DNA from: a candidate division WOR-3 bacterium
GTDB lineage: Bacteria; Hydrothermota; 32-111
DNA length: 64,000 bases
Assembly (NCBI GenBank): GCA_039804205.1
Contig: JBDRZY010000006.1
Span: 63,855 to 127,854, forward strand
Direction: 5' to 3'
Shown in pieces: positions 7,546 to 62,824 of this stretch. The notes beneath the pieces are model-generated. The model saw only the letters and a program-made list of their open reading frames with translations, had not been told where the DNA came from and did not search any database. Numbering within the stretch: position 1 is the first letter of the stretch; each line of letters opens with the position of its first letter. A program made the translations under genes and the position numbers.

Positions 7546-7552
7546 ACTATTC

Positions 7553-10354: not shown

Positions 10355-10368
10355 CCATCCTCCTATAT

Positions 10369-11223
10369 TTATCTTTCAAATCTCAATTTCGAAAAACCTT
10401 TAAAATCAGGCAGATAACCTATAGTTTCTACAAGATTATAAAGTATATTATCTTTTTTCACAAGATTTTTTTTGATTAATGGATATATGTCAACATTAAC
10501 ATAAAACTCATATCCAGCCATATATATCCACCATGGCCATTTTGTATAATATTCTGAGTTTCTAAACATCTCCCTGTTGAAAGACCAATAAAAAGTTACA
10601 TTTTCAAGGTATCCATAATGTTTGAGTAAAGCATTTAAAACTCCCAGAATGTTTGCTGTAAGATCATAAACACTAAAACCTTCTCCTTTCTGATGACCAT
10701 CCATATACTCTTCAAGAATTCCAAACCCAACTATAACGGAAGAAGAAAGAATAACAGACCAGTTCGAAATCTTTTTAGAGATTTTCCCTGTTGTCATAAT
10801 GTTATAAGATCTATCAAAAAGTGTTGCCAGAGGAAGAACAGGAAGATACGAAAAAATAAAATGGACACCTTTATCACATTGTGTCTCCTGTGCGATCTCT
10901 TCTGACAATGGTTTAAAGTAAAAATCTCTCGCCTGTGAAGGATCAGCATGGTTTGGACTTGTGAACCTTGTCCACCTATCAGCAAAATACCATCTCAAAT
11001 CTTTGTTGAGGGATATAAGAACAACTCCTCCTACAACTATAGTTGGAACTGCAATCTTCATAACATCGGAAAAATACTGATTGTTAAAAACAGTTAAAGT
11101 ATCCTCAAAATTTTCATCCGTCTTGCTTTCAAATGAAAAAATGTTTATGAACACAAAAGAGATGAGAATAATTTTAAAGATAAAATCTTGAAATCTCTTT
11201 TTCAAGGGTTTGTGAATCAACAT
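10369..11223 (-). CDS. Hypothetical membrane/exported protein (possibly DUF2279-like)
   Basis: It has an N-terminal signal/anchor (KKRFQDFIFKIILISFVFINIFSF) and internal hydrophobic segments. The DKGVHF...GFSVYDLTANILGV pattern weakly recalls DUF2279 lipoproteins; this is from memory and unverified. The ATG at 11223 lies 50 nt inside the cdaA 3' end. Confidence 0.5.
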   Translation of the reverse strand: MLIHKPLKKRFQDFIFKIILISFVFINIFSFESKTDENFEDTLTVFNNQYFSDVMKIAVPTIVVGGVVLISLNKDLRWYFADRWTRFTSPNHADPSQARDFYFKPLSEEIAQETQCDKGVHFIFSYLPVLPLATLFDRSYNIMTTGKISKKISNWSVILSSSVIVGFGILEEYMDGHQKGEGFSVYDLTANILGVLNALLKHYGYLENVTFYWSFNREMFRNSEYYTKWPWWIYMAGYEFYVNVDIYPLIKKNLVKKDNILYNLVETIGYLPDFKGFSKLRFER

Positions 11224-11917
11224 CTCTTTTCAAAACTCCTTTTTCAGCAATCGAAATCATCCTTCTTTCCTCTGATATAACTATCACAAGTGCATCAGTT
11301 TCCTCTGAAAGTCCAAGAGCAGCCCTGTGTCGTGTTCCAAGAGTTACTCCCTGTATTGGATTTTCAGATAAAGGTAAAATAGCGGATGCGGCAACTATCC
11401 TTTCATCTTTTATTATCAAAGCACCATCATGGAGTGGAGATTTAGGAGAAAATATTGACACTATAAGATCAGAGTTGATAGCAGAGTTTAAAGTTGTTCC
11501 AGTTTCGTAAAAATGTTTAAGACCAACATCACCTTCAAGAACTATCAGTCCGCCAAGTCCTCTATCAACAAGTTTCTGAACACTTTTAACTATTTCATCT
11601 ATATAAGTTTTTCTTTCTTCTTTTATAAAATATCTCACGAACTTTGACTTACCCAATATCGTAAGAACCCTTCTGATTTCAGGTTGAAAAACAACTATAA
11701 AAAATATTATCCATATCGATTTAAGACCGTTTAATATCCAGGTTAAACCTCGAAAGTTTAAAATATCGGAAACAAAAGTTACAAGAAAGATCAGGAATAT
11801 TCCTATAAACATTTGGACAGCTCTTGTCCCTTTTAAAAATCTCAACGCCTGGTAAACGATGGTTGAAACTATGATTATGTCCAGTATATCAAGGATATTG
11901 ATTTTTATCAGTGACAC
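11174..11917 (-). CDS. cdaA: Diadenylate cyclase CdaA (membrane-anchored DisA_N/DAC domain)
   Basis: Three N-terminal TM helices are followed by the DAC motifs LHDGALII and GTRHRAALGLSEETDALVIVISEE. Confidence 0.9.
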   Translation of the reverse strand: MSLIKINILDILDIIIVSTIVYQALRFLKGTRAVQMFIGIFLIFLVTFVSDILNFRGLTWILNGLKSIWIIFFIVVFQPEIRRVLTILGKSKFVRYFIKEERKTYIDEIVKSVQKLVDRGLGGLIVLEGDVGLKHFYETGTTLNSAINSDLIVSIFSPKSPLHDGALIIKDERIVAASAILPLSENPIQGVTLGTRHRAALGLSEETDALVIVISEERRMISIAEKGVLKRDVDSQTLEKEISRFYL

Positions 11918-13092
11918 AAAACCTCCGATGCAATTTTTAGAGCATCATAATTTTCCTTAACGTTGTGAACTCTGAAAATTTTTGCACCATTAAAAAAACC
12001 ACAGACGTTTGCTCCCACTGTTCCAGATAATCTTTCTTCAGGTTCTCTGTTCAAAATTTTTCCTATGAAACTTTTGTTTGAAACTCCAAGTGTTATAGGT
12101 TTTTTAAGTGATCTAAAGATATCAAGGTTGTTCAAAATTTTCAAATTATCTTCGACAGTTTTACCAAATCCAATGCCAGGATCAAGAGAGATCTTCAATG
12201 GATCAACACCTGAAGAAACAGCACACTCAACACTTTTTTCAAGATACTCAACTATTTCAAGAAGAAGATCTTCATATGCTGGATTTAATTGCATATCTTT
12301 TGGTGTTCCCTTTATATGCATCAATATTACAGATGAATTTTTATTCGCAACAACATTTTTCATCTCATGATCAAAATTTAAACCACTTATATCGTTAACT
12401 ATCTTGACACCCGCTGATAAAGCATAGGATGCAGTTTTTGAGTTGTATGTATCTATTGAAAGCAGAAGTTCTGGAAACCTCTTTAAAACATTTTCGATGA
12501 CAGGCATAACCCTTTCGATCTCCTCATCAACACTTACAGGTTCACTAAAAGGTCTTGTCGATTGACCACCTATATCTATGATATCAGCGCCCTCTTCGAC
12601 CATCTGTTCAACCCTTTTCAACGCTTTTTCAATTTCATTGTATCTTCCACCATCATAGAACGAATCGGGAGTGACATTTAAAACTCCCATGATCAAAAAA
12701 TTTTTTTGAGATAGTAAATCTTTACCATCAACAAAAAAACAATCTTTGTACTCAATAAGCTCAATAATCTGGTTCATACTTTTTTCAAGTGAGAACGGTT
12801 GTCCTTTCAATTTATCCTTCATCTTGAAAATTTGGGATAGTGTTGCAGAGAGAAGAATGTCCGATTTATCTGCTTTCCCTGAGATAACATCTTTTGCTAT
12901 AGAACAGTCACAACCCACAGATAGTGCAGTTTGTTTTAAAATGTTTGCAAATTCTATTCTCGCATCTTTGAAAAAAATAATGTACGAATATGTTTTCTTT
13001 TCCATCAACTCAATAGAATATGGATCACATTTTGTTTTCTCGATCCATTCTTTAAAACTCTTTTTATCCTTTTTCAAAACATATATTTTCAT
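11908..13092 (-). CDS. folP: Dihydropteroate synthase with an extra N-terminal domain of about 130 aa
   Basis: The pterin-binding domain starts at IMGVLNVTPDSFYDGGRY and includes DIGGQSTRP, VNDISG and LGVSNKSFIG. Residues 1 to about 130 lie outside the canonical domain. Confidence 0.9.
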   Translation of the reverse strand: MKIYVLKKDKKSFKEWIEKTKCDPYSIELMEKKTYSYIIFFKDARIEFANILKQTALSVGCDCSIAKDVISGKADKSDILLSATLSQIFKMKDKLKGQPFSLEKSMNQIIELIEYKDCFFVDGKDLLSQKNFLIMGVLNVTPDSFYDGGRYNEIEKALKRVEQMVEEGADIIDIGGQSTRPFSEPVSVDEEIERVMPVIENVLKRFPELLLSIDTYNSKTASYALSAGVKIVNDISGLNFDHEMKNVVANKNSSVILMHIKGTPKDMQLNPAYEDLLLEIVEYLEKSVECAVSSGVDPLKISLDPGIGFGKTVEDNLKILNNLDIFRSLKKPITLGVSNKSFIGKILNREPEERLSGTVGANVCGFFNGAKIFRVHNVKENYDALKIASEVLCH

Positions 13093-13679
13093 CTGGTCTC
13101 ACCTGCTTTTATCAGATTTAACGCTTCTTCCCTTGTGATCGGTTTTTTCATCACACCTCTTATAGCACTCGTTGTTGTATAAACTCCAGGTTTTTTTATT
13201 CCCCTCATGTAAAGACACATCTGTTGTGCTTCAACTATAACCAGAATACCCATCGGTTTTAAAAGTTTGTTCAGAGTATCAGCGATATCTGTTGTCATCC
13301 TTTCCTGTATCTGTGGTCTTTTAGCAATCGTATCAACTACCTCTAAAAGATTCGAAAAACCTGTTATTTTGTTGTTAGCAGGTATATATGCAATATGAAC
13401 ATAACCAAAAAAAGGAAGAAGATGGTGCTCACACATTGAAAAGAATGGAATATATCTTAACACTATCATTTCGTCCTGATTTTTAGTTTCAATAAGTTTA
13501 ATCTCTTTGTTGACATCTTTGAACAAACCTGAAAATATTTCCTCATACATCAAAGCAACTCTTCTGGGAGTGTCCCTCATTCCATCTCTGTTTATATTAT
13601 TCCCAAGTGCATCAATTATGAGTTGAACACCTTTTTCTATCTTTTTCAAATCTATACTTCTTTTAGACAGCCTCTTCAT
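13089..13679 (-). CDS. folE: GTP cyclohydrolase I
   Basis: Motifs seen are RDTPRRVA, FFSMCEHHLLPFFGYVHIAYIP and QIQERMT. Length is 196 aa. Confidence 0.92.
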   Translation of the reverse strand: MKRLSKRSIDLKKIEKGVQLIIDALGNNINRDGMRDTPRRVALMYEEIFSGLFKDVNKEIKLIETKNQDEMIVLRYIPFFSMCEHHLLPFFGYVHIAYIPANNKITGFSNLLEVVDTIAKRPQIQERMTTDIADTLNKLLKPMGILVIVEAQQMCLYMRGIKKPGVYTTTSAIRGVMKKPITREEALNLIKAGETR

Positions 13680-15534
13680 TTTTTACCTCTTTTTTTTCAT
13701 TATCTTTTTTCAAGGGTTCAAGTTCTTCACCTCTCATTATTCTATCGATATCATCACTATCCAGTGTTTCCCTTTCAAGCAGGTAGTTTGCCATTTTGTT
13801 GAGTTTATCGAGATTGTTTTTAAGGATATCCAGTGCCCTCTGCATCGCTTCATCAACTATTTTTTTCACCTCTGAATCGATCAATCTTGCAGTTTCCTCT
13901 GAAAAATCTTTCCTTTGAGTTATTTCACGACCAAGGAAAATTGAGTCGTGTGGGTTTGAATATTGTATAGTTCCAACCTTCTCGCTCATTCCCCATTCAC
14001 AAACCATCTTATGGGCAATTTCGGTTGCTTTTTCAATATCGTTACTCGCACCTGTTGTGATATCTCCAAGAGCAAGTATCTCTGCCGCTCTTCCCCCAAG
14101 CAGAGAAACAAGATTATCGAGCAGATAATTTTTTGAATACATGTGTCGATCATCTATTGGTAAAAACTGTGTCACTCCCAAAGCCATACCTCTAGGAATA
14201 ACCGTAACTTTGAACACAGGATCAACATTTTTTAAATTCTTTGAAACGATAACATGACCTGATTCATGATATGCACTTATTTTTCTCTCGTTCTCAGATA
14301 TAACAGCTGATTTTCTTGCAAGTCCCATCAGTATTTTATCTTTTGCTTCTTCAAACTCTTCCATATTAACTTCATTTTTATCTTTCCTTGCCGCAAGAAG
14401 TGCTGCCTCATTTACCATATTAGCGATATCAGCACCTGTAAAACCGGGAGTCGCTTTTGCGAGGATTGAAAAATCAACATCCTTTCCAAGTGGAATCTTT
14501 CTTGTGTGTATCACAAAAATTTCCTCTCTTCCTTTTACATCAGGTCTATCGATTACTATCCTTCGATCAAACCTACCGGGTCTCAGGAGTGCAGGATCAA
14601 GTATATCAGGTCTGTTGGTAGCAGCCATAACAATTACCGCTTCATCCGTCTGAAATCCATCCATCTCAACGAGTAACTGGTTCAACGTCTGTTCTCTTTC
14701 ATCATGTCCACCACCTATACCTGCTCCCCTGTGTCTTCCAACAGCATCGATCTCATCGATGAAAACTATACACGGTGAATTCGCTTTTGCTCTTTGAAAC
14801 AGATCTCTCACTCTTGAAGCCCCAACTCCAACAAACATCTCAACGAAATCTGAGCCGGATATTGAAAAGAATGGGACTTTTGCTTCACCAGCAACAGCTT
14901 TCGCCATCAATGTTTTACCTGTTCCAGGAGAACCTAAAAGTAAAACTCCTTTTGGAATCCTTCCACCTAAACGAATATATTTACCTGGATGTTTTAAAAA
15001 ATCTATTATCTCCTGTAATTCTTCCTTTGCCTCTTTAGCACCAGCAACATCGTTGAAAGTAACTTTTGGTGTCAAAACCATCACAGCGTTTGATCGTCCA
15101 AAAGTGAAAGCACGATTCTGACTGTTCGAAATCGATCTTGTAAAGAAATAGAAGAGAACAAAAAATGTGATCAATGGAATCACATAAGGTAAAACTTCTC
15201 CCCAGAAATTTGAAGGGATCTTAACAGTTATCTTTACATTCTGTTCAACCATCTTCTGAACAAGTGTATTATCATCATAAGGGATGATGGTCCTAAACTG
15301 TCCTCCATCTTTATAATCACCAGAGATATTTCTTTCAACTATCGTGACACTCTTGATCTTACCATTCATCAATTCATTGTAAAAAGTCGAATAATCTATC
15401 TGTTTCACCTGAGAGGTGAAGATACTTATTATGTTCGGTAAAAAAAGTAGCAGAAGAAGTGTTATTATCCAGATAGTCCACTTCGCTTTATCCTCATTTC
15501 CTTTGTATATTTTTTTTATGTTCCTTTTCTTCAT
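13663..15534 (-). CDS. ftsH: ATP-dependent zinc metalloprotease FtsH
   Basis: It has Walker [10 protein letters not shown], Walker B IVFIDEID, the SRH region and the zinc site HESGH. There are two N-terminal TM segments. Confidence 0.97.
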
Positions 15535-15538
15535 AAAC

Positions 15539-16066
15539 TTATTCCTCCTTTAAGATACCGATATATGGCAGATTTCTGTACATCTGTTTATAATCAAGAC
15601 CATAACCAACAACAAAATGGTCATCGATAACGAAACATGAATAATCCGGGTTTTCATTTACCTTTCTTTTACATTTTTTATCAAGAAGTGTGACCAGTTT
15701 TAAACTTTTTGGAGAGTTCGCAAGAAGTTTTAACTTCAAATGTTTATAGGTTAAACCTGTATCTATAATATCCTCAACAACAACAACATCTCTACCTTCA
15801 ATATCTATACTGATATCCTCTTCGATCCTCACTTTCCCGGAACTGGTTTTTTCACCTTCATAGGAACTTATTATCATAAAATCAACATTCAAAGGGAAAG
15901 TCAATTTTGTAATAAGGTTTGCAGCAAAAATAAAAGCACCTTTTAGAATGACTATAAATACAGGTTTTTTATCTTTGTATTCTTCATTCAGAATCTCTGC
16001 CAATTCATCTATCTTTTTTTTGATCTCATCTTCGGTGATAAAAACTTCAACATACTCTTTTGACAT
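15539..16066 (-). CDS. hpt: Hypoxanthine phosphoribosyltransferase
   Basis: The PRPP-binding loop VVVVEDIIDTGLT is present. Length is 175 aa. It sits in the conserved tilS-hpt-ftsH arrangement. Confidence 0.9.
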   Translation of the reverse strand: MSKEYVEVFITEDEIKKKIDELAEILNEEYKDKKPVFIVILKGAFIFAANLITKLTFPLNVDFMIISSYEGEKTSSGKVRIEEDISIDIEGRDVVVVEDIIDTGLTYKHLKLKLLANSPKSLKLVTLLDKKCKRKVNENPDYSCFVIDDHFVVGYGLDYKQMYRNLPYIGILKEE

Positions 16067-17544: not shown

Positions 17545-18720
17545 TCAAAAAATTATTCTGTTCCCTTTTATCTTCCTATCACTCACATAAAGATCTCTAA
17601 GTGTTAAAATTGATGATTCTCCATATTTGTTTCTTATCATTTCAATATGTTCTTTCAATCTTTCTTGTTTATCAAAAACTTCATTAAACGATAACTCTTG
17701 ATATATTCCTCTATCTCTTATTCCTCCTATCGATATTCCGACCAATCTCACAGGTAAAGTCAAATTTATTTTTTCGAATATTTTTTTTGTTTCCTCAAAA
17801 ATATCTTTCCAATCGTGGATGTATCTTTCAAGTTTTTTTTGCTTTGTAAATGTCTGGAAATTTGAATATCTCACAGTTAAAGTTATTCTATTCCCCTCAA
17901 AAAAATCTTCAAGCAACCTTGTTTCTATATGTTTTGATATCAAGGAAATATAAGATAGAATCTTTTCTTTATCAAAAGTATCCTCTGAAAACGTGTGTGT
18001 GTTACCAACAGATTTTGCCGTATCGATTTTTCTATAAATATCATCACTTATTTTTAAATTCGTTAATCCTTTCAAAAAATAGGCATAATGTTTAAAATTT
18101 TTTTTCAAAACAGAAAAAGGAATCTCATCGATCTGTCTAACATAAAATATACCATACGATTTCAATTTTTTTTCCATCTTTCTTCCTATCCCCGGGACCT
18201 TCTCTATCTCCTTATCTTTTATGTATTTCAAAGGGTCATCAACCACAAAAAAACCATCTGGCTTATTTTCATCGGACGCTATTTTCGCAACGATTTTTTT
18301 CGTCGATATACCACACGATGCTGTGATTTTCAGTTTTTCTTTTATTATTTTTTTTATCATAAGTGATTCTATGATCAGATCATCTTTTTTCGGGGAACAA
18401 AAAAAACATTCATCTATGGAATATGGAGACACATTACCTGCTATATCCTGAACCGTTTGAAAAACTTCTTTTGATATCGATAAATATTTTTCGATATCTG
18501 GCTTTATAACTACCAGATATGGACATTTTGATAATGCCTCATAAACAGGCATCCCTGCCTTTATACCATATTCTCTGGCTTTATAGGACGCAGAAGTTAT
18601 AACGGTTCTTGAATGTTCACTTCCACCAACAGCAACAGGCATATCCCTATAATAGGGTCTTGATGCGATCTCAACCGAAGCAAAAAAAGAATCGAGATCA
18701 AGATGAGCCCACCATATCAT
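17545..18720 (-). CDS. dinB: Y-family DNA polymerase IV (DinB type, catalytic residues present)
   Basis: Motifs AHLDLDSFFASVE and YSIDECFF (catalytic D..DE) are present. I place the start at ATG 18720 (MIWWAHLDLD), which forms an ATGA overlap with the stop of the upstream 80-aa ORF. The track's 18753 start adds an unlikely Cys-rich extension. Confidence 0.9.
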   Translation of the reverse strand: MIWWAHLDLDSFFASVEIASRPYYRDMPVAVGGSEHSRTVITSASYKAREYGIKAGMPVYEALSKCPYLVVIKPDIEKYLSISKEVFQTVQDIAGNVSPYSIDECFFCSPKKDDLIIESLMIKKIIKEKLKITASCGISTKKIVAKIASDENKPDGFFVVDDPLKYIKDKEIEKVPGIGRKMEKKLKSYGIFYVRQIDEIPFSVLKKNFKHYAYFLKGLTNLKISDDIYRKIDTAKSVGNTHTFSEDTFDKEKILSYISLISKHIETRLLEDFFEGNRITLTVRYSNFQTFTKQKKLERYIHDWKDIFEETKKIFEKINLTLPVRLVGISIGGIRDRGIYQELSFNEVFDKQERLKEHIEMIRNKYGESSILTLRDLYVSDRKIKGNRIIF

Positions 18721-18959
18721 AAGATCGCACTCTCCACATCTACAATGTACCATCTGTTCGTTGAAAGTGAATAAACAAGATGATAATAGAAAGAACCTGA
18801 TACAGTTGAAAAGTGTATCTTTATTCCATCCTCATCAACAGTTTTCCATGAATAAGTCAACTTCTCTACCTTTATAGTTTTACCTTTCCAGAAAAATGTT
18901 TTTGGAACTATTTTACCTTTTCCAAAGTACGCAAGAACAAAAATTTGCTCTCTGTTCAT
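18717..18959 (-). CDS. Small uncharacterised protein (80 aa) between lexA and dinB
   Basis: The ORF is flanked on both sides by verified ATGA start/stop overlaps. The sequence is Trp/Tyr-rich and looks all-beta (FFWKGKTIKVEKLTYSWKTVDEDGIKIHFSTVSGSFYYHLVYSLSTNRWYIVDVE). I could not assign a family with confidence. Confidence 0.6.
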   Translation of the reverse strand: MNREQIFVLAYFGKGKIVPKTFFWKGKTIKVEKLTYSWKTVDEDGIKIHFSTVSGSFYYHLVYSLSTNRWYIVDVESAIL

Positions 18960-19644: not shown

Positions 19645-20634
19645 ATGGAAAATAAAATTTCCTATTTCTACAAAAAACTTGATAACAAAAAGGTTCAATG
19701 CACACTGTGTCCCCATTTTTGTACACTCTCTCCCGGACAAACAGGTTTATGTTTTGGAAGAGAAAATATAGATGGAGAACTCATAGCGATAAATTATGGT
19801 AAAGTTATGACGATCGCTGATGATCCAATCGAAAAAAAACCTCTTTACCATTTCCATCCAAAAGAGTATATAATATCTGTGGCACAGTTTGGTTGTAACC
19901 TGAAATGCCCATTCTGTCAAAACTATAACATATCACAAAACTATTTCGATGCTGAATTCATTCCAGTTGATGGACTTTACAGGTTGATAAAAAACAAGGG
20001 TAGAAAAAGAATAGCGTTCACATATACTGAACCTTTGATGTGGTATGAATATATTCACGATTTCGGTCAATCATATTCAAAACAGATAGATATAGTTCTT
20101 GTAACAAATGGAACTATAAATGAAGAACCAGCAAAAAAACTGTTACCTTTTGTAAAAGCTGCAAACATAGATCTTAAATCTTTTAATAGCGATTTTTATA
20201 AAAAAGAACTCAAAGGTGATCTTGAAAGTGTAAAAAATTTTATAAAGTTATCATACGAAATGGGAGTTCATATAGAAATCACAAACCTTCTGATCCCACA
20301 AAAAAACGATAACCCAGAAGAATTCAAACTCATGGTTGATTTCATAAGTTCAGTTTCAAACAAAATACCCTTACATATATCAAGATACTTCCCAAACTAT
20401 AAATATAAAATTCCACCAACACCACCTGAAAGGATGATCGAATTTTATAATTTAGCAAAAGAAAAACTGCACTATGTATATCTGGGGAACCTTTTTGACA
20501 ACAACTATTCGAACACCTATTGTCCTGTATGCTTTAACCTGTTAATAGAAAGAAACTTTTACGATATAAACATGATAGGGATCAATGACAAAAAATGTTC
20601 AAAGTGTAATTCTTCAGTTGATATAATACTATGA
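19645..20634 (+). CDS. AmmeMemoRadiSam-system radical SAM enzyme (AmrS-like)
   Basis: The N-terminal block CTLCPHFCTLSPGQTGLCFGR...DPIEKKPLYHFHP is followed by the radical SAM cluster motif GCNLKCPFCQNYNIS. There is a C-terminal Cys pair. Confidence 0.8.
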   Translation: MENKISYFYKKLDNKKVQCTLCPHFCTLSPGQTGLCFGRENIDGELIAINYGKVMTIADDPIEKKPLYHFHPKEYIISVAQFGCNLKCPFCQNYNISQNYFDAEFIPVDGLYRLIKNKGRKRIAFTYTEPLMWYEYIHDFGQSYSKQIDIVLVTNGTINEEPAKKLLPFVKAANIDLKSFNSDFYKKELKGDLESVKNFIKLSYEMGVHIEITNLLIPQKNDNPEEFKLMVDFISSVSNKIPLHISRYFPNYKYKIPPTPPERMIEFYNLAKEKLHYVYLGNLFDNNYSNTYCPVCFNLLIERNFYDINMIGINDKKCSKCNSSVDIIL

Positions 20635-20648
20635 AAAATTTTTCATAG
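20629..20648. repeat. Perfect 20-nt palindrome CTATGAAAAATTTTTCATAG spanning the radical SAM gene stop codon
   Basis: Read directly from the sequence. Its centre is about 90 bp upstream of the sigma-54 -24/-12 element. Function is unknown; an enhancer-binding-protein site is possible. Confidence 0.6.
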
Positions 20649-20725
20649 TTTTTCAGAAATAGTGCACTTGTCAAAAAAGATTTTTCTTAACTTGAGCAAA
20701 ATAATAACTTAAAATAAAAAGTTTC

Positions 20726-20741
20726 TGGCATAAAATTTGCT
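20726..20741 (+). promoter_or_regulatory. Sigma-54 (RpoN) -24/-12 promoter: TGGCAT-AAAAT-TTGCT
   Basis: GG and GC have the canonical spacing of the consensus TGGCAC-N5-TTGCW. The element ends 27 nt upstream of the first pilin-like ATG (20768). An AAAGGAG RBS lies in between. Confidence 0.65.
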
Positions 20742-20767
20742 TTTTTAGTTTTAAAAAGGAGTTTTGT

Positions 20768-21190
20768 ATGGTCAGAAAAGGATTCACAATGATAGAAACA
20801 CTTGTTGTGATAGTTATTATAGGGATGATTCTTGGTTTTGCAATTCCTCGATTCAATTCAAGACAGGCAAAGTTTAACAGTACTGTTAACAACATCATTG
20901 ATCAGTTGAACATGGCAAGACAGGAGGCTGCAACCAAAAACATTACAACAACATTTTATCTCGCAAAAGATTCTTTCAAATATGGAAACACAGTTTACAG
21001 ATTTCCTACAAGAGTTTTCACTTACGATTTTATAAACGAACAGGACTTTTCGTTTGACTCACCCATAGAGTTTATGCCAGGAGGGAAAACCGATGCTGTA
21101 TATGCTATACAGGTTATAGATTCAGCGACTTCAAGACAGAGTATGATTTACATTTTTCCATCAGGATATATTTTAAAAGGTAGCGAATAG
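20768..21190 (+). CDS. Minor (pseudo)pilin, FimT/FimU/GspH-like
   Basis: It has the class III signal and N-methylation motif MVRKGFTMIETLVVIVIIGMILGFAIP. Length is 140 aa. A following helix (NNIIDQLNMARQEA) is typical of GspH/FimT. Confidence 0.8.
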   Translation: MVRKGFTMIETLVVIVIIGMILGFAIPRFNSRQAKFNSTVNNIIDQLNMARQEAATKNITTTFYLAKDSFKYGNTVYRFPTRVFTYDFINEQDFSFDSPIEFMPGGKTDAVYAIQVIDSATSRQSMIYIFPSGYILKGSE

Positions 21191-21198
21191 GAGGAACA

Positions 21199-21573
21199 AT
21201 GAAAAAAGGTTTTACACTTCTTGAACTTTTAGTATCATCGATAATACTTGCAATTGGAATACTTGGACTTGCTGCACTTTTTCCTGCAGCTATGAGATCA
21301 ACACTTCTCACAAGGCAGAACACACAGGCAGTTGAAATCTGTCAGGCAACAATAGAATATTTAAGAACTTTACCCATAACTTCAGATGAACTAGAAGAGG
21401 GAACACACGGTCCAGATACAATAGATTCAAAATTCGTGAGAACCTATACTGTTACAGATAACCATCCAGCAACAAACATGAAATTTGTTGAGGTGACCGT
21501 ATCATGGCAACAGGTTGGTGGAAGTGGAGGGTTGAACCATTCTCAGACGATGAAAACTTATATTTCTAAATAA
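21199..21573 (+). CDS. Minor (pseudo)pilin, PilV/GspI-like
   Basis: It begins MKKGFTLLELLVSSIILAIGILGLAAL, the PilV-type N-terminus. Length is 124 aa. It has its own GGAGG RBS. Confidence 0.8.
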   Translation: MKKGFTLLELLVSSIILAIGILGLAALFPAAMRSTLLTRQNTQAVEICQATIEYLRTLPITSDELEEGTHGPDTIDSKFVRTYTVTDNHPATNMKFVEVTVSWQQVGGSGGLNHSQTMKTYISK

Positions 21574-21585
21574 TAAGGAGATATT

Positions 21586-24165
21586 ATGAAAAACAAAGGT
21601 TTCACTTTGCTTGAACTCCTTCTGGCAATCACAATATTTTCAATAATAGTTGGTGCTGCCATCACAGTGTTTGTGAACTCTCAAAATTCAAAACAAAAAG
21701 TTGATCTTATGACACAGGCACAACAATCAGCGAGAATCGCAGTCGATTATATGATAAGGGATATAAGGGCTGCTGGTTACAGTATCGATGTTGATGAAAC
21801 ATCAACATCACCACAGAGAAGATTGGTTTACGCTTCACCTTATGAACTGATTTTCAATGCAAATCTTTTGCCTTATCAGGATACACCTGATAATCCACAG
21901 GAACCGAGAGCGATGAAGGTTACCTCATCTCTTGATGAAAGACCAGCACATTATTATCCACCAATTCAATATCAAACAGGTGCTGAAACAGTTGTTTATA
22001 CACTCGACTGGAACAACGATGGTATCATAAATCAGGATGATAGGGATAACTCCCCTGCTTCTTTAACAAAGAATCCAAACGATTACTGTCTTGTCAAAAG
22101 AGTTTATGGACTTTACGACTCAGGTTTGAACATTGAATATATCCTGCCACCAGGTTCTCCATTTGACTGGTCGAACCATCAGGTAGTCTCAATCGTTTCA
22201 GGTCCTGATAGGTATCCAGCACAAACAACAGGAACACCGATCTTCCATTACTGGTATGATGATGATGGAGATCCCACAACTCCGTTAAAACTCTATGGTG
22301 ATGCAAACAACGATGGAGAACTCAGCCAAAATGAGGCAAACGCATTAACACCGATAACCGATTATGAAATGCTCGATAAGATTCAAATTGTTACAGTTAA
22401 AGTAACTGGAGTATCCCAGACACCCTTTAGAGGAAAATATTTAACTTCCTCTGTACAAACGGATGTTAATATAACAAGAAATACATCAATAGATGTTTTT
22501 GTTGTTAAAGGCCATGTTTATGTTGATGAAAATAAAAATGGAGATTACGATTCTGGAGAAGATGGTATTGAGGGGATGAAAGTAAAACTTTCAACAGGAG
22601 AAGTCGCTCTTACAGATGAAAATGGAACCTGGGTTTATGCTGTTGTTCCTGGAGTTTACACTGCTTCGATAACACCACAACTTTTCTATAGACCAACTAC
22701 TCCATCAAATTTTGATTTCACGATTACGAACTCATCAAGAGATTTTAGAAATGAGGATGATTATAAAAAATTCTTTGGAATGGAGGAGACACCTGCTGCT
22801 AAAGTTTCAGGAATCGTGTTCGAAGATCTCAACGCTGATGGTTTCTGGCAAAAGGATTCAGAACCAGGTGTTCCAGATTTACAGGTTGCTGTATGGAACA
22901 ATAGCACAAAATCATACTCATCACCTGTCGATTCAGTAGGTATTTTTCACCTTGATGTAAACGCTGGAGAGTCATTATACATCTGGGTAACACCTAATGA
23001 TAGTTTCGGTCCAAGTAATGTTGATCTTAACGATCAACTTAGTTTCACACAGGGCACCCCTCTTCTTTCAATACTTTCATCTTCCGCTGTTTTGGGTTAT
23101 CTTGATGAAGGAGAGGAAGGTTATATAGCATTTGGAATGTTAAAAGCAACCGGCACACGACCAACTTTAAGAGTTTTAGTTCCAAACGGTGGAGAATTAT
23201 GGCACACGGGCTCTTCCTACGATATAAAAGTTTACGCAACACCAAACGATTCAGGAGAAGTAATAAAGAAATTGATTTACTATTATTCTGTTGATGGTGG
23301 AGATAACTGGAGATACATAGATGAACAATCTTATCCAACACCATCTTCAGGAGATACATTATATACATACTACTGGAATATTCCTGATTCTGTTCAGGGT
23401 AGTCAGATATGCCTTGTAAAAGTGATATGTATAGATGAGGGAAACTGGTCTGTTTACGATATATCTGATAACTATTTTATGATCGTTAACCAGGCAGGTT
23501 ACACATACCTTTTTTTAACAAACGAATATGTTGATTCACTGTATGATGATACTCTATATCTTTACGCTTTTGGTGGAACTTATTATTCCGGTGTTGGAAC
23601 ATCAGGGCAATATCCACTTCCAAGATATATGAACACAGTAAACTCAAGAGTGATGGGTATTGCAGGTGATTCGATTGAAACATTCAATGTAATGATCCAT
23701 AAACCATTCAAAACACAAATTGGTATGAAAGCAGAATGGATAACAAAAAAAGGTATTCCTTATGCTGATACAATTTATCCCGGTATATGGAGGTTTGTTG
23801 GTTATGGAATGACTTACGATCCAGATGTTACAACAAAACCAAAATATTTTAACATTGAAGTTTACAAAACTGACTCTTTTGGTTCAAGAACTTCAAGAGT
23901 TTTATTATTCTCAACTCTAAACGCTGCAACTTATGATTCTATAAAAAGAACAGGTTCTATCATGAACGATGAGGATGAGTCATCAATGGATATATACATA
24001 AATAGAGGATTCTCGATCTCAAGAGCAGATAGGTTGTATATAAAAGTATACTATTCTGGTATTTTTTCAAATACAGGTGGACCTTCTGGAAGTATATCCC
24101 CAAGGATATGGATGACTTTTGGTGAAACAAGAGGAACAAAACTTTCACTTCCACCTAAAAAGTAA
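21586..24165 (+). CDS. Giant minor-pilin-like protein: PilW/GspJ-like N-terminus fused to adhesin-like domains (859 aa)
   Basis: It begins MKNKGFTLLELLLAITIFSIIVGAAITVF and has the PilW-like helix ARIAVDYMIRDIRAAGY. It carries two 12-residue EF-hand-type loops: DWNNDGIINQDD at 22006-22041 and DANNDGELSQNE at 22300-22335. Two SdrD-B/CnaB-like repeats lie at about 22501-22674 and 22801-22992. An Asp-box SVDGGDNW lies at 23287-23310. Confidence 0.75.
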   Translation: MKNKGFTLLELLLAITIFSIIVGAAITVFVNSQNSKQKVDLMTQAQQSARIAVDYMIRDIRAAGYSIDVDETSTSPQRRLVYASPYELIFNANLLPYQDTPDNPQEPRAMKVTSSLDERPAHYYPPIQYQTGAETVVYTLDWNNDGIINQDDRDNSPASLTKNPNDYCLVKRVYGLYDSGLNIEYILPPGSPFDWSNHQVVSIVSGPDRYPAQTTGTPIFHYWYDDDGDPTTPLKLYGDANNDGELSQNEANALTPITDYEMLDKIQIVTVKVTGVSQTPFRGKYLTSSVQTDVNITRNTSIDVFVVKGHVYVDENKNGDYDSGEDGIEGMKVKLSTGEVALTDENGTWVYAVVPGVYTASITPQLFYRPTTPSNFDFTITNSSRDFRNEDDYKKFFGMEETPAAKVSGIVFEDLNADGFWQKDSEPGVPDLQVAVWNNSTKSYSSPVDSVGIFHLDVNAGESLYIWVTPNDSFGPSNVDLNDQLSFTQGTPLLSILSSSAVLGYLDEGEEGYIAFGMLKATGTRPTLRVLVPNGGELWHTGSSYDIKVYATPNDSGEVIKKLIYYYSVDGGDNWRYIDEQSYPTPSSGDTLYTYYWNIPDSVQGSQICLVKVICIDEGNWSVYDISDNYFMIVNQAGYTYLFLTNEYVDSLYDDTLYLYAFGGTYYSGVGTSGQYPLPRYMNTVNSRVMGIAGDSIETFNVMIHKPFKTQIGMKAEWITKKGIPYADTIYPGIWRFVGYGMTYDPDVTTKPKYFNIEVYKTDSFGSRTSRVLLFSTLNAATYDSIKRTGSIMNDEDESSMDIYINRGFSISRADRLYIKVYYSGIFSNTGGPSGSISPRIWMTFGETRGTKLSLPPKK

Positions 24166-24176
24166 AGGAGAATTGT

Positions 24177-25670
24177 ATGGAAAAGAAAGGAATCGCACTC
24201 GTTACAACAATAATGATCCTTTTAATGTTATCACTTCTTGCAGCTGGAATGTTTTTCACAATAAAAAATGAAACAGCGATATCAATCTATCAGGCACAAT
24301 CGGTTCAGGTTATATCTGTTGCTGAATCAGCACTTGATGAGATCAAACACAGGATGAATCTTCCACCTTCAGATCCAGCATTTATCGGAGATACTTCTGT
24401 TCCTTTGAATCCAAACTGGACAACAGTGATACTTTTTGAGGATCATTCTGATCAGGATGATTCAACAGCAGGAATTTTTTATAAAACTTCACTTCAAACT
24501 AATCTTGATGATTTTGATCCTGACAACCCTGAGATGGATTATACAACAAAAGAATATGAAGAAGGTGTTTCTTTAACGATAAGACATAAAACAAATGAGG
24601 ATAAAACTCAAATCTATTATTATGATTCAAAAACTGAAAAACAATTCCTGGGACCTCCATCACTTGTTGTTGAATACCCTCCAGTTGAACTGGTTGAAAT
24701 AACAGCAAGGTCTGGCAAAGCTGTTAAAAAGATTCTCGCAGAGATTTCAAAACAGGAAGTTAACATAAAAGTTCAATCAGCATTGTCATCTTCAACAATC
24801 GCCTGGCAGATGACAGGTAACACTGATGTTTATGTTTGTGGACATAACCATCTTTTATCAACACCATACAATGTCTGTCCTTTTGATCCAACAACCTCTG
24901 CTCCACATCAACCAGGATCTTCAGCCCCTGCTGTTTCATGCTGGGCAGTTCAATCGGGAACAGGATCATATGCAACAGGAAAGCCACTTTACCATGTTGA
25001 GATAGATTCAGTTGATTCACATCCTGGAAAGAACCATTACTTCTATAATTATTATAAACACACATGGAACATAAACCGTCTTGAATATGATCCATACTGC
25101 ACAAGAGCCGGATGTCTTGCAGGTATTGCAACAACATCTTCAAGTGTTGGTAACTATGGAGCAACAAAATCACACATTTTTGGAAATCCTGATATCATAA
25201 TTAAATACGATCTTGTGATACCTGAACTCTACGAAGTACTTGGATACTCTTCTGAGGCAGAGATGAATGAAGCGATAAACTGGGAGACATCACTTGTGAG
25301 TGATCCTGTGAATATCAGATATTTTAAGTTAGGTTCAGGACCAGGTTCAGTAATAGAAATACCAACAATCAACTCTCAAACAGTTGGAATCATCTGGATC
25401 AACGGTAGTGTCAGATTAAGGGCTGGATCAAGGAGTTTTCAGCACAAAGGACTTTTATATATTCAGGAAAATCTTTTGGAAACATCAACACCTGGTGGTA
25501 ACTACGATTTCTGGGTTTTGGGTGCCATGATGGTCAAGGGTTATATCGATGATATACATACATCTGGTAACAAGCGAATGTTCTTTATGTATTCAAAAGA
25601 TGCTCTGTCGCAGACAGTTGAACAGGATCTGAGATTTTACAAACTAATAGGCTGGAAAGAGGTTTATTGA
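24177..25670 (+). CDS. PilX/GspK-like pilus assembly protein with large C-terminal domain (497 aa)
   Basis: The N-terminus MEKKGIALVTTIMILLMLSLLAAGMFF is PilX_N/GspK-type: a hydrophobic helix with no Glu at +5. About 450 further residues contain six Cys and match nothing I recognise. Confidence 0.65.
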   Translation: MEKKGIALVTTIMILLMLSLLAAGMFFTIKNETAISIYQAQSVQVISVAESALDEIKHRMNLPPSDPAFIGDTSVPLNPNWTTVILFEDHSDQDDSTAGIFYKTSLQTNLDDFDPDNPEMDYTTKEYEEGVSLTIRHKTNEDKTQIYYYDSKTEKQFLGPPSLVVEYPPVELVEITARSGKAVKKILAEISKQEVNIKVQSALSSSTIAWQMTGNTDVYVCGHNHLLSTPYNVCPFDPTTSAPHQPGSSAPAVSCWAVQSGTGSYATGKPLYHVEIDSVDSHPGKNHYFYNYYKHTWNINRLEYDPYCTRAGCLAGIATTSSSVGNYGATKSHIFGNPDIIIKYDLVIPELYEVLGYSSEAEMNEAINWETSLVSDPVNIRYFKLGSGPGSVIEIPTINSQTVGIIWINGSVRLRAGSRSFQHKGLLYIQENLLETSTPGGNYDFWVLGAMMVKGYIDDIHTSGNKRMFFMYSKDALSQTVEQDLRFYKLIGWKEVY

Positions 25671-26191
25671 TGCATAACTATTTACAGGATGAATTGAACC
25701 TTTACGGTGAATTTATAGAAGAGGTTGATATAGCAAAATTTATAATACAGGCACATTCAGGGCCTTTCCATATTTTAAGGGAAAGGCCCGATATAAAATT
25801 TATAGGTGAAAAAATAAAAAATGAGTATCTTTCAAACCATCAGATGATAAGAACAAATGAAATTTTTCAGCAGATTTCTGATAAGTGCACCCGTGTTCAT
25901 ATTACACCTTTCCTGAGAAAGTATAAATCAGCAAAACTTTTGGCTGAACTTTTTTTACAAAATTTTGATTTTTATTCAGATGAGTATATACTTCCAATAG
26001 ATGAGAACATTATAAATTTAATTCTGTCACAGTTACATAACTATAACACTGACATAATAAAAAATCTTTTGATAAAATACAACAAAGAAGGTTTTGTGCC
26101 ACATCATTCTGAAAGATACAAAAACAATGTCCATCCTTCCTACCTTGTATTTTTGAATGAAGTTATTAAACAGAACATAACGATTTTATGA
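25667..26191 (+). CDS. Hypothetical cytoplasmic protein (174 aa)
   Basis: Its start overlaps the pilX-like stop by 4 nt. It has no TM segment or signal peptide. No family was recognised (C-terminal GFVPHHSERYKNNVHPSYLVF). Confidence 0.5.
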   Translation: MMHNYLQDELNLYGEFIEEVDIAKFIIQAHSGPFHILRERPDIKFIGEKIKNEYLSNHQMIRTNEIFQQISDKCTRVHITPFLRKYKSAKLLAELFLQNFDFYSDEYILPIDENIINLILSQLHNYNTDIIKNLLIKYNKEGFVPHHSERYKNNVHPSYLVFLNEVIKQNITIL

Positions 26192-26979
26192 AAAATAAAA
26201 AATTCCATATTTTATTTTTAATATTTTTACTTTTTCTTGTCACCATTTATTTAACCTATACAAAATATCAGAATAAAACAATCTTTTCAATCGATGATAA
26301 AAGGATTTCCTTTGAGTATTTCTTAAAATACAAAGAGTTTTATAAAAAGATAAATTCTCTTGATCACGTTCTTGATTGTAATATAGTAGATGAGATAGTT
26401 AAAAACTATATTTTCTTCAAAATTGCAAAAGAGGAAGGTATCGACGTTTCAGATAAAAGTATAGATTATCATTTTAACATGCATAAGGATGATTTAAAAA
26501 TCGATTTTGAAAAAATTAAAAAAAGTTTTAATGAGGAAGAAATTTTTGAATTTTTTGAAAAACCATTCGTTGTAAAAAATCTTCTCATAGAAAAGATTAA
26601 ATATGATTCAACAGGTATACAGAAAGAGAGGTATATGTATTCAAAAACGATTTTCAAAGGATGGGATGGAAAAAGTGTTGATAAAAATTTTTTAAACGAA
26701 TTTACCGAATATGTTGAACAGCATCTGGAAAAAGAGAACATAAACGGATTTGAAACAGGTAAAAAAAACTTTTCTGAAGATGATGGTTTTTATTATGTTT
26801 TTTCTTCTAACAAAAATGTACTATTTGGATATAGAGTTTACAAAATTCCATCGGATGAATATTTAGAAAAAAAATACAAGAAAAAATTTATATTAAAATT
26901 TTTGGATGATAAAGATAAGAGGGCATTTTTATTGGTTAACAAAGACAAACTCCTTGACACAATCGTTGAAGTCAGATGA
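26188..26979 (+). CDS. Hypothetical membrane-anchored protein (263 aa), possibly SurA-N/PpiD-like chaperone fold
   Basis: It overlaps the upstream gene by 4 nt. It has a single N-terminal TM helix (FHILFLIFLLFLVTIYLTY). The rest is Lys/Glu-rich and helical, loosely resembling SurA N-terminal domains; this is weak. Confidence 0.5.
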   Translation: MKNKKFHILFLIFLLFLVTIYLTYTKYQNKTIFSIDDKRISFEYFLKYKEFYKKINSLDHVLDCNIVDEIVKNYIFFKIAKEEGIDVSDKSIDYHFNMHKDDLKIDFEKIKKSFNEEEIFEFFEKPFVVKNLLIEKIKYDSTGIQKERYMYSKTIFKGWDGKSVDKNFLNEFTEYVEQHLEKENINGFETGKKNFSEDDGFYYVFSSNKNVLFGYRVYKIPSDEYLEKKYKKKFILKFLDDKDKRAFLLVNKDKLLDTIVEVR

Positions 26980-27872
26980 AAGATATCTTTTTCACCGATG
27001 AATTTATAGAATTTTTCCAGCTTTCAAAAATTGAGACTGATGCTTTTCTTTATCCATTTTTAATGGTTGATTTCAGCGGCCATAAATCTATTTCCTCCTT
27101 AGGTTACCAGGGTATCCTGATCAAGAAAAATTATTCAGATAACGAACTCAAAGAATTTTATGCTGAATTAAAAAATTTTAGAAAAAAAAATCAAATCGTA
27201 TGTGAATTCATAAGGTATAATCCATTTTTAAACAATATACTCCAGCTCGATCAACGAAACGAATCATCAACATTTTTCGTAATAGAAACCGATAAAAATC
27301 CTTCTTCATATTTTGAAAACTTACCATCAAGAACAAGGTATTCGATTAAAAAAGCAAAAGAAAAAATTACAGTAAAAAGTGATAAAACCCTAGGGATTCT
27401 CAAAGGGACTTTAAAATATAAAAATGAATTTTTCTATGATGAGGGAAGTTTGAAGCGTCTGCTCGATGCACCCTTCAGTATAAAATTTTCAGCATTATTT
27501 AACGATGAAGAAGTTGCTTCAAGTTTATTCTTTTGTTCAGATGATACATCATATTACATCGCTAACTTTTCGACAGAGGAAGGTAAAAAAAACAATGCAA
27601 ATATATTTTTAATCTATGAATTTTACAAATTTTGCTTCGAAAGAAAAATCAAATACATCGGACTTGGTGGTGGATTTAATGATAATGACTCTTTATCGTT
27701 TTTCAAAAGTCAATTTTCAACCTATACAACAAAAATTATCCACTCAAAATTGGTGCATGATCAAAAAATCTATAATAAACTTAATGAAAACTTAAAAGAG
27801 AATTATTTCCCACCATACCTTTCAGAAAAAAATCTATTAAAACTTTCCAATAGCTGCAGCAAAAGCGATTGA
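26976..27872 (+). CDS. FemAB-like / GNAT (Acetyltransf_6-type) acyl- or aminoacyl-transferase family protein
   Basis: It overlaps the upstream gene by 4 nt. The C-terminal pattern YYIANFSTEEGKKNNANIFLIYEFYKFCFERKIKYIGLGGG...DSLSFFKSQF fits the FemAB-like/BioF2-like acetyltransferase signature as I recall it. Confidence 0.55.
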   Translation: MKDIFFTDEFIEFFQLSKIETDAFLYPFLMVDFSGHKSISSLGYQGILIKKNYSDNELKEFYAELKNFRKKNQIVCEFIRYNPFLNNILQLDQRNESSTFFVIETDKNPSSYFENLPSRTRYSIKKAKEKITVKSDKTLGILKGTLKYKNEFFYDEGSLKRLLDAPFSIKFSALFNDEEVASSLFFCSDDTSYYIANFSTEEGKKNNANIFLIYEFYKFCFERKIKYIGLGGGFNDNDSLSFFKSQFSTYTTKIIHSKLVHDQKIYNKLNENLKENYFPPYLSEKNLLKLSNSCSKSD

Positions 27873-60613: not shown

Positions 60614-61253
60614 CTATAATCCTTTTTAAATTTTTTCTTATATCTCCGTTAAAAAGATATGAACCCGAAACTATCCAGTCAGCACCTGCCTTTATAGCAT
60701 CTTTTCCAGTTTTATCGTTTATCCCACCATCGATCTCGATTTTATAATTTCTGTTTCCTCTCAAGAGTTTCAATTTCCTTACTTTTGTTAAAGTGTATTT
60801 TAAAAATTTTTGACCTGCAAAACCGGGATGAACTGACATCACAAGAACATAATCAACATAATCAAGATAGGGTATTATCCTTTCAAGTTTAGTTTCAGGG
60901 TTTAATACAATACCTGCTTTTACCTTTCTTTTCTTTAATCTATTGATAAGAAGAACAGGATTTTTTGTTGTTTCAATATGGAACGATATGTGAGTAGCCC
61001 CAGAATCAATGAATCTATCACAATATTTATCCGGATTTTCTATCATAAGATGAACATCCAAATATCTATCGGTTAACTCTCTGACAACTTCTACAAAATA
61101 TGGACCAAAAGTTATATTATCGACAAAATGCCCATCCATAACATCGAGATGTAAAATTTTTACAGAAGAAGGTATATATGATATACTTTTTTGTAGATTC
61201 TTTATATCTATTGATAACAGGGATGGTATTATCTGAATATCTCTATCCATCAT
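60606..61253 (-). CDS. rpe: Ribulose-phosphate 3-epimerase
   Basis: Motifs seen are [34 protein letters not shown] and IEIDGG. Confidence 0.95.
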
Positions 61254-62823: not shown

Positions 62824-62824
62824 T

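Follow-up and report, generated by a model that had tools for sequence, protein, structure and literature searches.

Minor pilins, according to PMC8833165 and PMC7541494, are presumed to prime the assembly of type-4 filaments and to form their tips. Here, we analyze a locus whose first four genes appear to encode such proteins, within a 64-kb stretch of DNA from an uncultured WOR-3 bacterium (hereafter the window; all coordinates are window positions). They are followed by three further genes, orf174, orf263 and orf298 (hereafter the trio), which a first-pass annotation had put forward as a module that modifies the pilins or the filament tip. Our results show the locus to be a variant of a known minor-pilin system, in which the trio's link to the pilus is positional only. 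We favor, with a confidence that modestly exceeds our doubt, the view that all seven genes form one sigma-54 operon, that the first four encode a PilY1-independent minor-pilin tip complex and that the trio is a separate envelope- or precursor-modifying unit carried on the same transcript.

The minor-pilin/PilY1 operons of the type IVa pili (T4aP), such as fimU-pilVWXY1E of Pseudomonas aeruginosa and clusters 1-3 of Myxococcus xanthus, resemble the WOR-3 locus: in both, four prepilin-type genes follow one another with their classes in the same sequence, and the member assigned to the K/X class lacks Glu5. Unlike them, the WOR-3 locus contains neither pilY1 nor pilE, its genes 3 and 4 exceed PilW and PilX in size several-fold, its promoter is of the sigma-54 type and no hidden Markov model of a pilin globular domain reaches its cut-off. 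Sigma-54 control has been documented for the major pilin gene pilA of Pseudomonas and Myxococcus, but is not known for their minor-pilin operons. The GspH-I-J-K tip of the type II secretion system (T2SS) shares with the WOR-3 locus its gene order, the lack of PilY1 and, if our reading of gene 4 is correct, a K-type cap that is self-sufficient in cis (PMC13533445). It differs in that the WOR-3 genes lie outside any gsp operon, include adhesin-type SdrD_B modules and have a second member that is closer to PilV.

Two other precedents bear on individual parts of the locus. Thermus ComZ is one of the modular pilins. In this class, of which PilB and PilC of Streptococcus sanguinis are examples, a functional (adhesive) module is grafted C-terminally onto a pilin N-terminal module, the design that gene 3 appears to share (PMC8179133 and PMC9934059). 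The graft predicted for gene 3 is, however, of another kind (SdrD-B-like modules plus about 400 aa that are unassigned), and the host of gene 3 belongs to a different phylum with a diderm envelope. The second precedent is TfcP, encoded in minor-pilin cluster_1 of M. xanthus, which like the trio is a lineage-restricted non-pilin gene within a minor-pilin operon, with overlapping or short stop-start distances (PMC8833165). But TfcP is a cytochrome c of the periplasm that has been shown to affect the stability of PilY1, whereas two of the trio's proteins are predicted to be cytoplasmic.

The listing of open reading frames (ORFs) bears out the seven co-directional genes that had been described, which span 20768-27872 (Table 1). 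Each of the first four is preceded by an AAGGAG Shine-Dalgarno sequence and they are separated by 8, 12 and 11 nt, so that the individual ribosome-binding sites and 8-12 nt gaps of the earlier description also stand.

Table 1. Coordinates of the seven-gene locus and of other features discussed in the text
Feature	Position	Strand	Length	Description
ORF	1295-6715	-	1806 aa	SprA/Sov-type translocon protein
ORF	7553-10354	-	933 aa	TMEM260-like domain and tetratricopeptide repeats
ORF	18717-18959	-	80 aa	no family match
Radical SAM gene	19645-20634			AmmeMemoRadiSam family
Palindrome and T-run	20628-20654	+		perfect 11 + 11 nt, ACTATGAAAAA and TTTTTCATAGT, then TTTTT
Sigma-54-type promoter	20726-20741	+		TGGCAT-N5-TTGCT; -24 GG at 20727-8, -12 GC at 20739-40
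Gene 1	20768-21190	+	140 aa	GspH/FimU/ComGD-like minor pilin
Gene 2	21199-21573	+	124 aa	PilV/GspI-like minor pilin
Gene 3	21586-24165	+	859 aa	giant modular prepilin in the PilW/GspJ position
Gene 4	24177-25670	+	497 aa	large PilX/GspK-like protein
Gene 5 (orf174)	25667/25670-26191	+	174/173 aa	cytoplasmic all-alpha protein; diverged member of a widespread unannotated family
Gene 6 (orf263)	26188-26979	+	263 aa	clade-specific; one N-terminal membrane span (residues ~3-27)
Gene 7 (orf298)	26976-27872	+	298 aa	FemAB-family, GNAT-fold transferase-like protein
orf298/ptb overlap	27837-27872		36 nt	convergent 3' ends

The evidence for the promoter is comparative. A sigma-54 element was defined by GG at -24, GC at -12 and the exact spacing between them (TGGCAC-N5-TTGCW), and the sequence TGGCATAAAATTTGCT upstream of gene 1 has all three. 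The pattern TGGCAY-N5-TTGCW has this single match in the 64 kb, and a match turned up in 4 of 100 shuffled sequences. In each of the 10 lineages examined (the window and nine relatives), gene 1 is preceded by the slightly relaxed form TGGYAY-N5-TTGCW. It is located ~42-45 nt before the called gene 1 start in the window and in the loci L001, L002, L004, L006, L011, L014 and L015, and 22 and 11 nt before the listed ORF start in L025 and L026, whose gene 1 starts have probably been miscalled. Since the intergenic DNA around the motif diverges between the lineages while the motif itself is kept, we regard this as good comparative evidence for a real sigma-54 promoter, and the near-consensus element noted in the first-pass annotation is thus supported. 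Transcription would be expected to start near 20752.

The operon also appears to be delimited upstream. The preceding gene encodes an AmmeMemoRadiSam radical SAM protein (TIGR04337, 274.6 bits; cut-off 220), and its stop codon is overlapped by a 22-nt palindrome (20628-20649). The palindrome recurs at the same offset (~-98 from the promoter) in L002, L004, L006 and L011; in L004 its changes are symmetric, that is, compensatory (AATGTGAAGA..TCTTCACATT), and in L001 and clade B it is degenerate. With its run of T residues it is probably the intrinsic terminator of the radical SAM gene, insulating the pilin operon, and a terminator-like hairpin in this position supports the reading of the seven genes as a unit of their own. 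Alternatively, though it resembles a terminator more closely, it could be a putative activator site or a site for a dimeric regulator of the CRP/FNR type, situated ~98 nt upstream of the sigma-54 element. In several lineages the palindrome has the form TGTGA-N8-TCACA. The radical SAM gene itself stays directly upstream of the pilin genes even in L014, L015, L025 and L026, in which the farther synteny breaks, and no AMMECR1 or Memo partner gene was identified for it in the window.

The identity of genes 1-4 was approached through the prepilin (class III) signal, sought as a short basic leader, Gly at -1, a hydrophobic residue at +1, Glu at +5 and a hydrophobic helix. Genes 1, 2 and 3 carry it in full as KG/FTMIE, KG/FTLLE and KG/FTLLE, respectively (the stroke separates -1 from +1); each has one N-terminal hydrophobic segment, and the motif G/FT[ML][IL]E occurs only three times in the window, in precisely these genes. 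All three proteins exceed the gathering threshold of the Pfam N_methyl model (21.2 bits) with 25.7, 28.5 and 31.4 bits. The signal of gene 4, G/IALVT, lacks Glu5 as in the K/X-class pilins, and the protein is matched by Pfam PilX_N in 6/6 lineages (best E 5e-5) at a score that stays below gathering (18 versus 25.5 bits). These results uphold the proposed minor-pilin set in the order H-I/V-J/W-K/X, with N_methyl above gathering in genes 1-3 and with class similarities that are sub-threshold throughout. For the class-specific globular domains (GspH, PilV/GspI, PilW/GspJ), every NCBIfam score is below its curated cut-off, and most of the class alignments reach the N-terminal helix only. The gene 1 protein approaches GspH (39 bits versus 80) and ComGD (38.7 versus 70), the latter over residues 4-130. 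The gene 2 protein, which is the most conserved of the four (52-100 % identity), scores 40.4 bits against TIGR02523 PilV (cut-off 52.2), and gene 4 matches GspK weakly (E 0.0023).

Genes 3 and 4 depart from the usual dimensions of their class. The lengths of 172 prepilin-type ORFs from 61 unrelated metagenome pilin loci have a median of 170 aa, a 95th percentile of 330 aa and a maximum of 900 aa; at 859 and 497 aa, respectively, genes 3 and 4 are thus exceptional in size. Gene 3 is a composite of an N-terminal pilin helix, beta-sandwich modules of the SdrD-B type (~residues 287-442) and a C-terminal domain of ~400 aa to which no family is assigned. The SdrD_B match, in two stretches, is above the Pfam gathering threshold (42.1 bits versus 29.7), and the matches to GspJ (23.8 bits versus a cut-off of 64.85), HpsC and ComGE are confined to the N-terminal ~70 aa. 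This architecture makes the protein a likely candidate for a tip adhesin. In gene 4, Cys/His motifs (CGHNH) are conserved and the C-terminal GWKE, which belongs to the motif GWKEVY, is invariant. Searches of the Protein Data Bank (PDB) gave no sequence match for the globular part of gene 3 and no match for that of gene 4.

The usual partners of a minor-pilin set are missing from the window, as had been stated. Besides the prepilin motif search, Pfam scans were made of 29 further window ORFs (9 across 1295-16066 and 20 across 39130-61253); for the syntenic flanks of L011, an existing Pfam annotation was consulted. Both the scanned ORFs and the L011 flanks encode housekeeping families, and no ATPase, platform protein, secretin or peptidase of a pilus or T2SS, no PilY1 and no major pilin was found in the L011 flanks or among the scanned window ORFs, a set that excludes the three ORFs at 61250-63997. 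Nor did the Pfam scans detect a protein of the Sigma54_activat type among the scanned window genes.

From these elements the following sequence of events can be proposed. The sigma-54 promoter would be read with the help of an enhancer-binding activator encoded elsewhere, and the products of genes 1-4 would be minor pilins of the GspH/FimU, GspI/PilV, GspJ/PilW and GspK/PilX classes. A prepilin peptidase, likewise encoded elsewhere, would cleave them, so that they could assemble at the inner membrane into an initiation (priming) complex that ends up at the tip of the filament. According to PMC13533445, systems that have no PilC/PilY1 rely on their K-family subunits to provide the final beta-strand in cis. 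Because no PilY1-type adhesin was found in the scanned window and because gene 4 is large and lacks Glu5, we suggest that its product probably caps the complex alone, with its last beta-strand in cis, like T2SS GspK and TadG/CpaL; the invariant GWKE/GWKEVY motif would fit such a cis-strand design. Gene 3, with its grafted SdrD-B-like modules, would then be the likely adhesive part, a modular pilin in the sense defined above.

It could be argued that genes 1-4 are instead the GspHIJK tip of a T2SS pseudopilus, or of some related non-pilus type-4 filament. The order GspH-I-J-K is the same as that of the four genes, GspH is the best NCBIfam match of gene 1, gene 4 weakly resembles GspK, PilY1 is absent from the scanned window and the T2SS GspK homologues are self-sufficient caps (PMC13533445). 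We nevertheless consider this interpretation improbable, since gene 2 is best matched by PilV and gene 4 by PilX_N in 6/6 lineages, since a subunit of 859 aa with adhesin-type SdrD-B modules suggests surface display, and since neither gspC-G nor gspL-M adjoin the locus as they do in typical T2SS operons. All of these scores are below their cut-offs, so that neither assignment, surface pilus or T2SS-like pseudopilus, is established.

The junctions that connect the trio to the pilin genes differ somewhat from their first description, in which 4-nt overlaps chained all three genes to gene 4. Such ATGA overlaps do exist between orf174 and orf263 and between orf263 and orf298. At the gene 4/orf174 junction, where the sequence reads TAT TGA TG CAT, orf174 is likely to start with the ATG at 25670, giving a 1-nt TGATG overlap; the TTG at 25667 in the mechanical ORF list is less likely, and the gene calls of the relatives begin at the equivalent Met. 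The AAGAGG Shine-Dalgarno sequence of orf174 is situated within the coding sequence of gene 4. Genes 6 and 7 have no Shine-Dalgarno sequence of their own, which together with the ATGA overlaps argues that their translation is coupled to that of orf174 by termination-reinitiation. The trio is very probably co-transcribed with the pilin genes. At its other end, orf298 overlaps the convergent phosphate butyryltransferase gene (ptb) by 36 nt, an arrangement that leaves no space for a terminator on either strand; in L217, a more distant relative, a 3-nt gap separates them instead. The G+C content of third codon positions is uniform over all of the genes (0.23-0.32) and thus gives no hint that any of them was inserted recently. 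The lower overall G+C content of the trio was considered as a mark of foreign origin and rejected on the same ground, the dip being explained by the abundance of Phe, Tyr, Asn, Lys and Ile in the encoded proteins.

A contrary view would divide the seven genes into separate transcription units: the trio would be read from a promoter of its own within the 3' part of gene 4, and the tight packing would reflect no more than a small, gene-dense genome. The genome is indeed compact, and on the opposite strand many housekeeping genes overlap; the gap between gene 4 and orf174 is 20-39 nt in some relatives, and the trio differs from the pilin genes in its faster evolution and its amino-acid composition. 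We think such a division unlikely, however, because no terminator-like structure separates orf174 from gene 4, because the start of orf174 overlaps the stop of gene 4 in the window, and because sigma-70-like matches (52, versus 42.7 +/- 6.1 in shuffled sequences) are not in excess; scans for sigma-70 promoters and terminators are in any case uninformative in such AT-rich DNA.

Hydrophobic segments and a FemAB match above gathering bear out the composition of the trio given in the first-pass annotation: a cytoplasmic protein, a membrane-anchored one and a FemAB-like one. The first of these, orf174, has no hydrophobic segment and falls into no Pfam or NCBIfam family. Its AlphaFold2 model is entirely helical, with a predicted local distance difference test score (pLDDT) of 76, and found no Foldseek match in the PDB with E<3. 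A profile match to calbindin/EF-hand structures, obtained with both narrow and broad alignments (E 0.002), was discarded as spurious, for it covers one helical stretch and no Ca-loop motif; the other PDB profile matches of these alignments are at chance level. An exhaustive profile search (hmmsearch, E<1e-3) retrieved 64 remote homologues. Their comparison with orf174 by hhalign (99.1 %, E 7.5e-19, 163 columns) confirmed a full-length homology with shared motifs, in a family of ~160-190 aa that is characterized by D..K..YQ...G..H, RVNL.P and HHS..YR..Y.P.YRV. In the WOR-3 clade the C-terminal motif has diverged, HPSYLV replacing PxYRV.

A degenerate DNA pattern for this C-terminal motif yielded at least 120 loci, of which 120 (L036-L155) were scanned, and all 120 encode a member of the family. 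Their hosts include Clostridia, Bacilli, Erysipelotrichaceae, Bathyarchaeia, Asgard archaea, Marinimicrobia, KSB1, Fermentibacteria, Cloacimonadota and others, as well as another WOR-3 lineage (L084) in which the orf174-like gene has non-pilin surroundings. These relatives share full-length homology with orf174, but their contexts are quite different: in ~32 of the 120 loci the protein is fused to a P-loop kinase of the uridine-kinase/PRK type, in 22 the gene adjoins the S component of an energy-coupling factor (ECF) transporter, and one protein has the architecture GNAT-orf174-APH. Sometimes, the family adjoins DUF3842. Genuine prepilin genes are absent from the neighborhoods of all 120, as are genes resembling orf263 or orf298, and the three prepilin motif matches that these loci contain are all in implausible reading frames. 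The kinase fusions and the adjacent ECF S components suggest a role for the family in nucleoside or vitamin salvage.

The second protein of the trio, orf263, has a domain beyond its membrane span that is probably periplasmic, and it is the fastest-evolving of the seven. It has no PDB profile match and its AlphaFold2 model is unusable (pLDDT 40). The possibility that it is a chaperone like SurA or PpiD was examined and is unproven: the window copy scores 18.3, 15.7 and 14.5 bits with SurA_N families, all below gathering, together with a weak Trigger_C match, and this SurA_N signal is found in 1 of 11 family members, namely the window copy.

The third protein, orf298, is likewise devoid of hydrophobic segments. 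It matches Pfam FemAB (PF02388) above gathering (29.4 bits versus 24), as do its relatives (15/15, best E 3.6e-10), 12 of 15 of which also match Acetyltransf_6. The alignment is partial (profile positions 307-386 of 406) and covers the C-terminal GNAT subdomain, the same region in which the best PDB match, S. aureus FemX (6snr), was found at a weak E value of 0.23. Compared with the FemAB/FemX enzymes, the aminoacyl-tRNA-dependent transferases that build peptidoglycan branches, orf298 thus shares this subdomain but is shorter (335-420 aa in those enzymes), aligns over only ~80 of the 406 profile positions and corresponds to no NCBIfam model. A PEP-CTERM-associated FemAB-like family, considered as a possible analogue, was set aside since orf298 has no NCBIfam match to it. 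In the literature searched we found no mention of minor pilins and a FemAB-type protein together, in keeping with the first-pass annotation, which knew of no described coupling of this kind.

The phyletic distribution of the seven genes is narrow. Word-indexed searches returned 16 proteins for orf298, 11 for orf174 and 8 for orf263 (counting the window's own orf298 and orf263), all from WOR-3-type metagenome-assembled genomes. Among the GTDB species representatives, orf174 is present in 10 genomes and the gene 4 family at 11 loci, in essentially the same genomes. At the sensitivity of these searches, the seven-gene arrangement is found only in one WOR-3 clade, outside of which orf263 and orf298 have no detectable relatives. 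An alignment of the PilX-like proteins, searched against genome contigs for outgroup pilin clusters, returned the same clade only; an alignment of the PilV-like proteins, searched against metagenomes, returned only very distant, generic pilin loci. Some of the genomes with the locus (L021/L030, DYMB01000001.1; L025; L033) are labelled as Acetofilamentum sp. (Bacteroidaceae), "uncultured Bacteroidales" and "uncultured Gammaproteobacteria", probably through taxonomic mislabelling.

Every locus of the clade has the same organization: the radical SAM gene, genes 1-7 and a convergent ptb-hisC-Na/Pi-pgeF-recJ-radA-mla-dnaB block. The flanking housekeeping genes are kept in all of the 20+ related loci (40-98 % identity), so that ~30 kb is equally syntenic, and it is only farther upstream that the subclades differ (lexA-dinB-tilS versus LTD-methyltransferase-DAGK). 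We have therefore rejected synteny as a proof of function. With the whole surroundings equally conserved, the co-linearity of the seven genes holds no independent functional information, and their conservation cannot prove a functional link between the pilins and the trio. Protein identity to the most distant subclade is 43-54 % for genes 2-4 and ~35 % for gene 1, compared with 45-63 % for the flanking housekeeping genes. That the pilin genes evolve at the rate of these flanks suggests that they are a stable core trait. The corresponding values for the trio are ~44 % (orf174), ~25 % (orf263) and 31-37 % (orf298), the last two evolving faster.

We can now consider what the trio does. With co-transcription very probable and the translation of genes 6 and 7 apparently coupled, its products (the cytoplasmic orf174, the membrane-anchored orf263 and the cytoplasmic FemAB-like acyl or aminoacyl transferase) would be made in stoichiometric amounts. 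Our committed guess is that they modify the envelope or a nucleotide-linked precursor by means of the transferase. We do not see the trio as a dedicated pilin-modification system, because elsewhere the orf174 family goes with nucleoside-kinase-like domains and vitamin-type ECF importers in the absence of a pilus. For orf174, the neighborhood survey that had been suggested as a check went against the earlier proposal: outside the clade, its homologues never adjoin pilins (0/120 loci). The 61 distant PilV-like metagenome loci contain no relative of any trio gene. A pilin- or tip-modifying role for the trio is thus unsupported, the adjacency to pilins being found in one equally syntenic WOR-3 clade only.

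Several observations weigh against this separation of the trio from the pilus. The trio lies directly downstream of gene 4 in every lineage, down to ~45-50 % identity of the housekeeping genes; the gene 4/orf174 junction, in six lineages examined, ranges from the 1-nt overlap to a gap of 39 nt, with the Shine-Dalgarno sequence of orf174 inside gene 4; and at search sensitivity all seven families share the same restricted distribution. Lineage-restricted genes in minor-pilin operons can moreover be specific to the pilus, as TfcP of Myxococcus illustrates (PMC8833165). The tip-complex part of our reading has its own weak point in that the classes of genes 3 and 4 were assigned from position and N-terminal similarity, with no globular-domain model at its cut-off.

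Such observations would suit a scheme, to which we give a modest but real weight, in which the trio is a dedicated accessory module of the pilus: orf263 would be a membrane-anchored periplasmic chaperone for the very large gene 3 and gene 4 pilins, while orf174 and the FemAB-like enzyme would together act on the pilins or on the local envelope, by a modification that allows the assembly or passage of a bulky tip complex. The invariant adjacency to gene 4 with overlaps or very short gaps in all lineages, the common phyletic distribution and the TfcP precedent of a clade-specific accessory gene (PMC8833165) are in its favor, as are the concordant, if weak, matches of the window's orf263 to three SurA_N families and to Trigger_C and the low-confidence AlphaFold2 prediction of a beta-hairpin followed by helices. 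But the equal synteny of the flanking housekeeping genes means that there is no independent event of co-occurrence, the orf174 superfamily never adjoins pilins elsewhere and extends to the archaea, the 61 other PilV-like loci have no trio relatives and the SurA_N signal is limited to just 1 of 11 orf263 relatives. In addition, neither orf174 nor orf298 has a signal peptide or membrane segment, and the globular domains of pilins are extracytoplasmic.

A more specific version of a pilin-directed role, which strikes us as very improbable, would be a maturation step in which the FemAB-like enzyme, with orf174 as its helper and orf263 as its anchor or guide, attaches either an acyl group or an amino acid taken from aminoacyl-tRNA to the N-terminal segments that the processed minor pilins expose to the cytoplasm. 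By analogy with the leucyl/phenylalanyl (L/F)-transferase, such a modification could replace or supplement N-methylation. The cytoplasmic location of two trio proteins, the processing of prepilin N-termini at the cytoplasmic face of the membrane and the fact that the seven genes are never apart are all compatible with it. We prefer the reading in which the trio serves the envelope or a precursor and shares the sigma-54 transcript of the tip genes.

Three other ORFs of the window deserve mention. The 1806-aa ORF matches the outer-membrane translocon SprA/Sov of the type IX secretion system (TIGR04189, 366 bits; cut-off 200), and the organism therefore probably has such a system. The 933-aa protein, which is encoded ~10 kb from the pilin operon, has a domain like the protein O-mannosyltransferase TMEM260 (PF11028, E 1.5e-41) and may be regarded as a candidate for a protein glycosyltransferase. 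The 80-aa ORF lies between lexA and a dinB-type polymerase gene; it has a 78-aa counterpart at the same position in L011 and is possibly part of the SOS operon.

If our favored reading is correct, the WOR-3 locus would be a compact, PilY1-independent set for the initiation of filament tips, gated by sigma-54 and with adhesion built into its oversized pilins. As its host belongs to a candidate phylum that has no cultured members, it would provide a data point on how the tips of type-4 filaments are licensed and functionalized. The orf174 family, a by-product of this work that extends over both bacteria and archaea, may merit a study of its own. The trio is the only part of the locus that is potentially truly new. 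Were it to act on the pilins, it would represent a new maturation step and, in the form of an N-terminal addition, a new post-translational modification controlling the initiation of type-4 filaments; otherwise, it would be a group of unrelated genes riding on a pilus operon.

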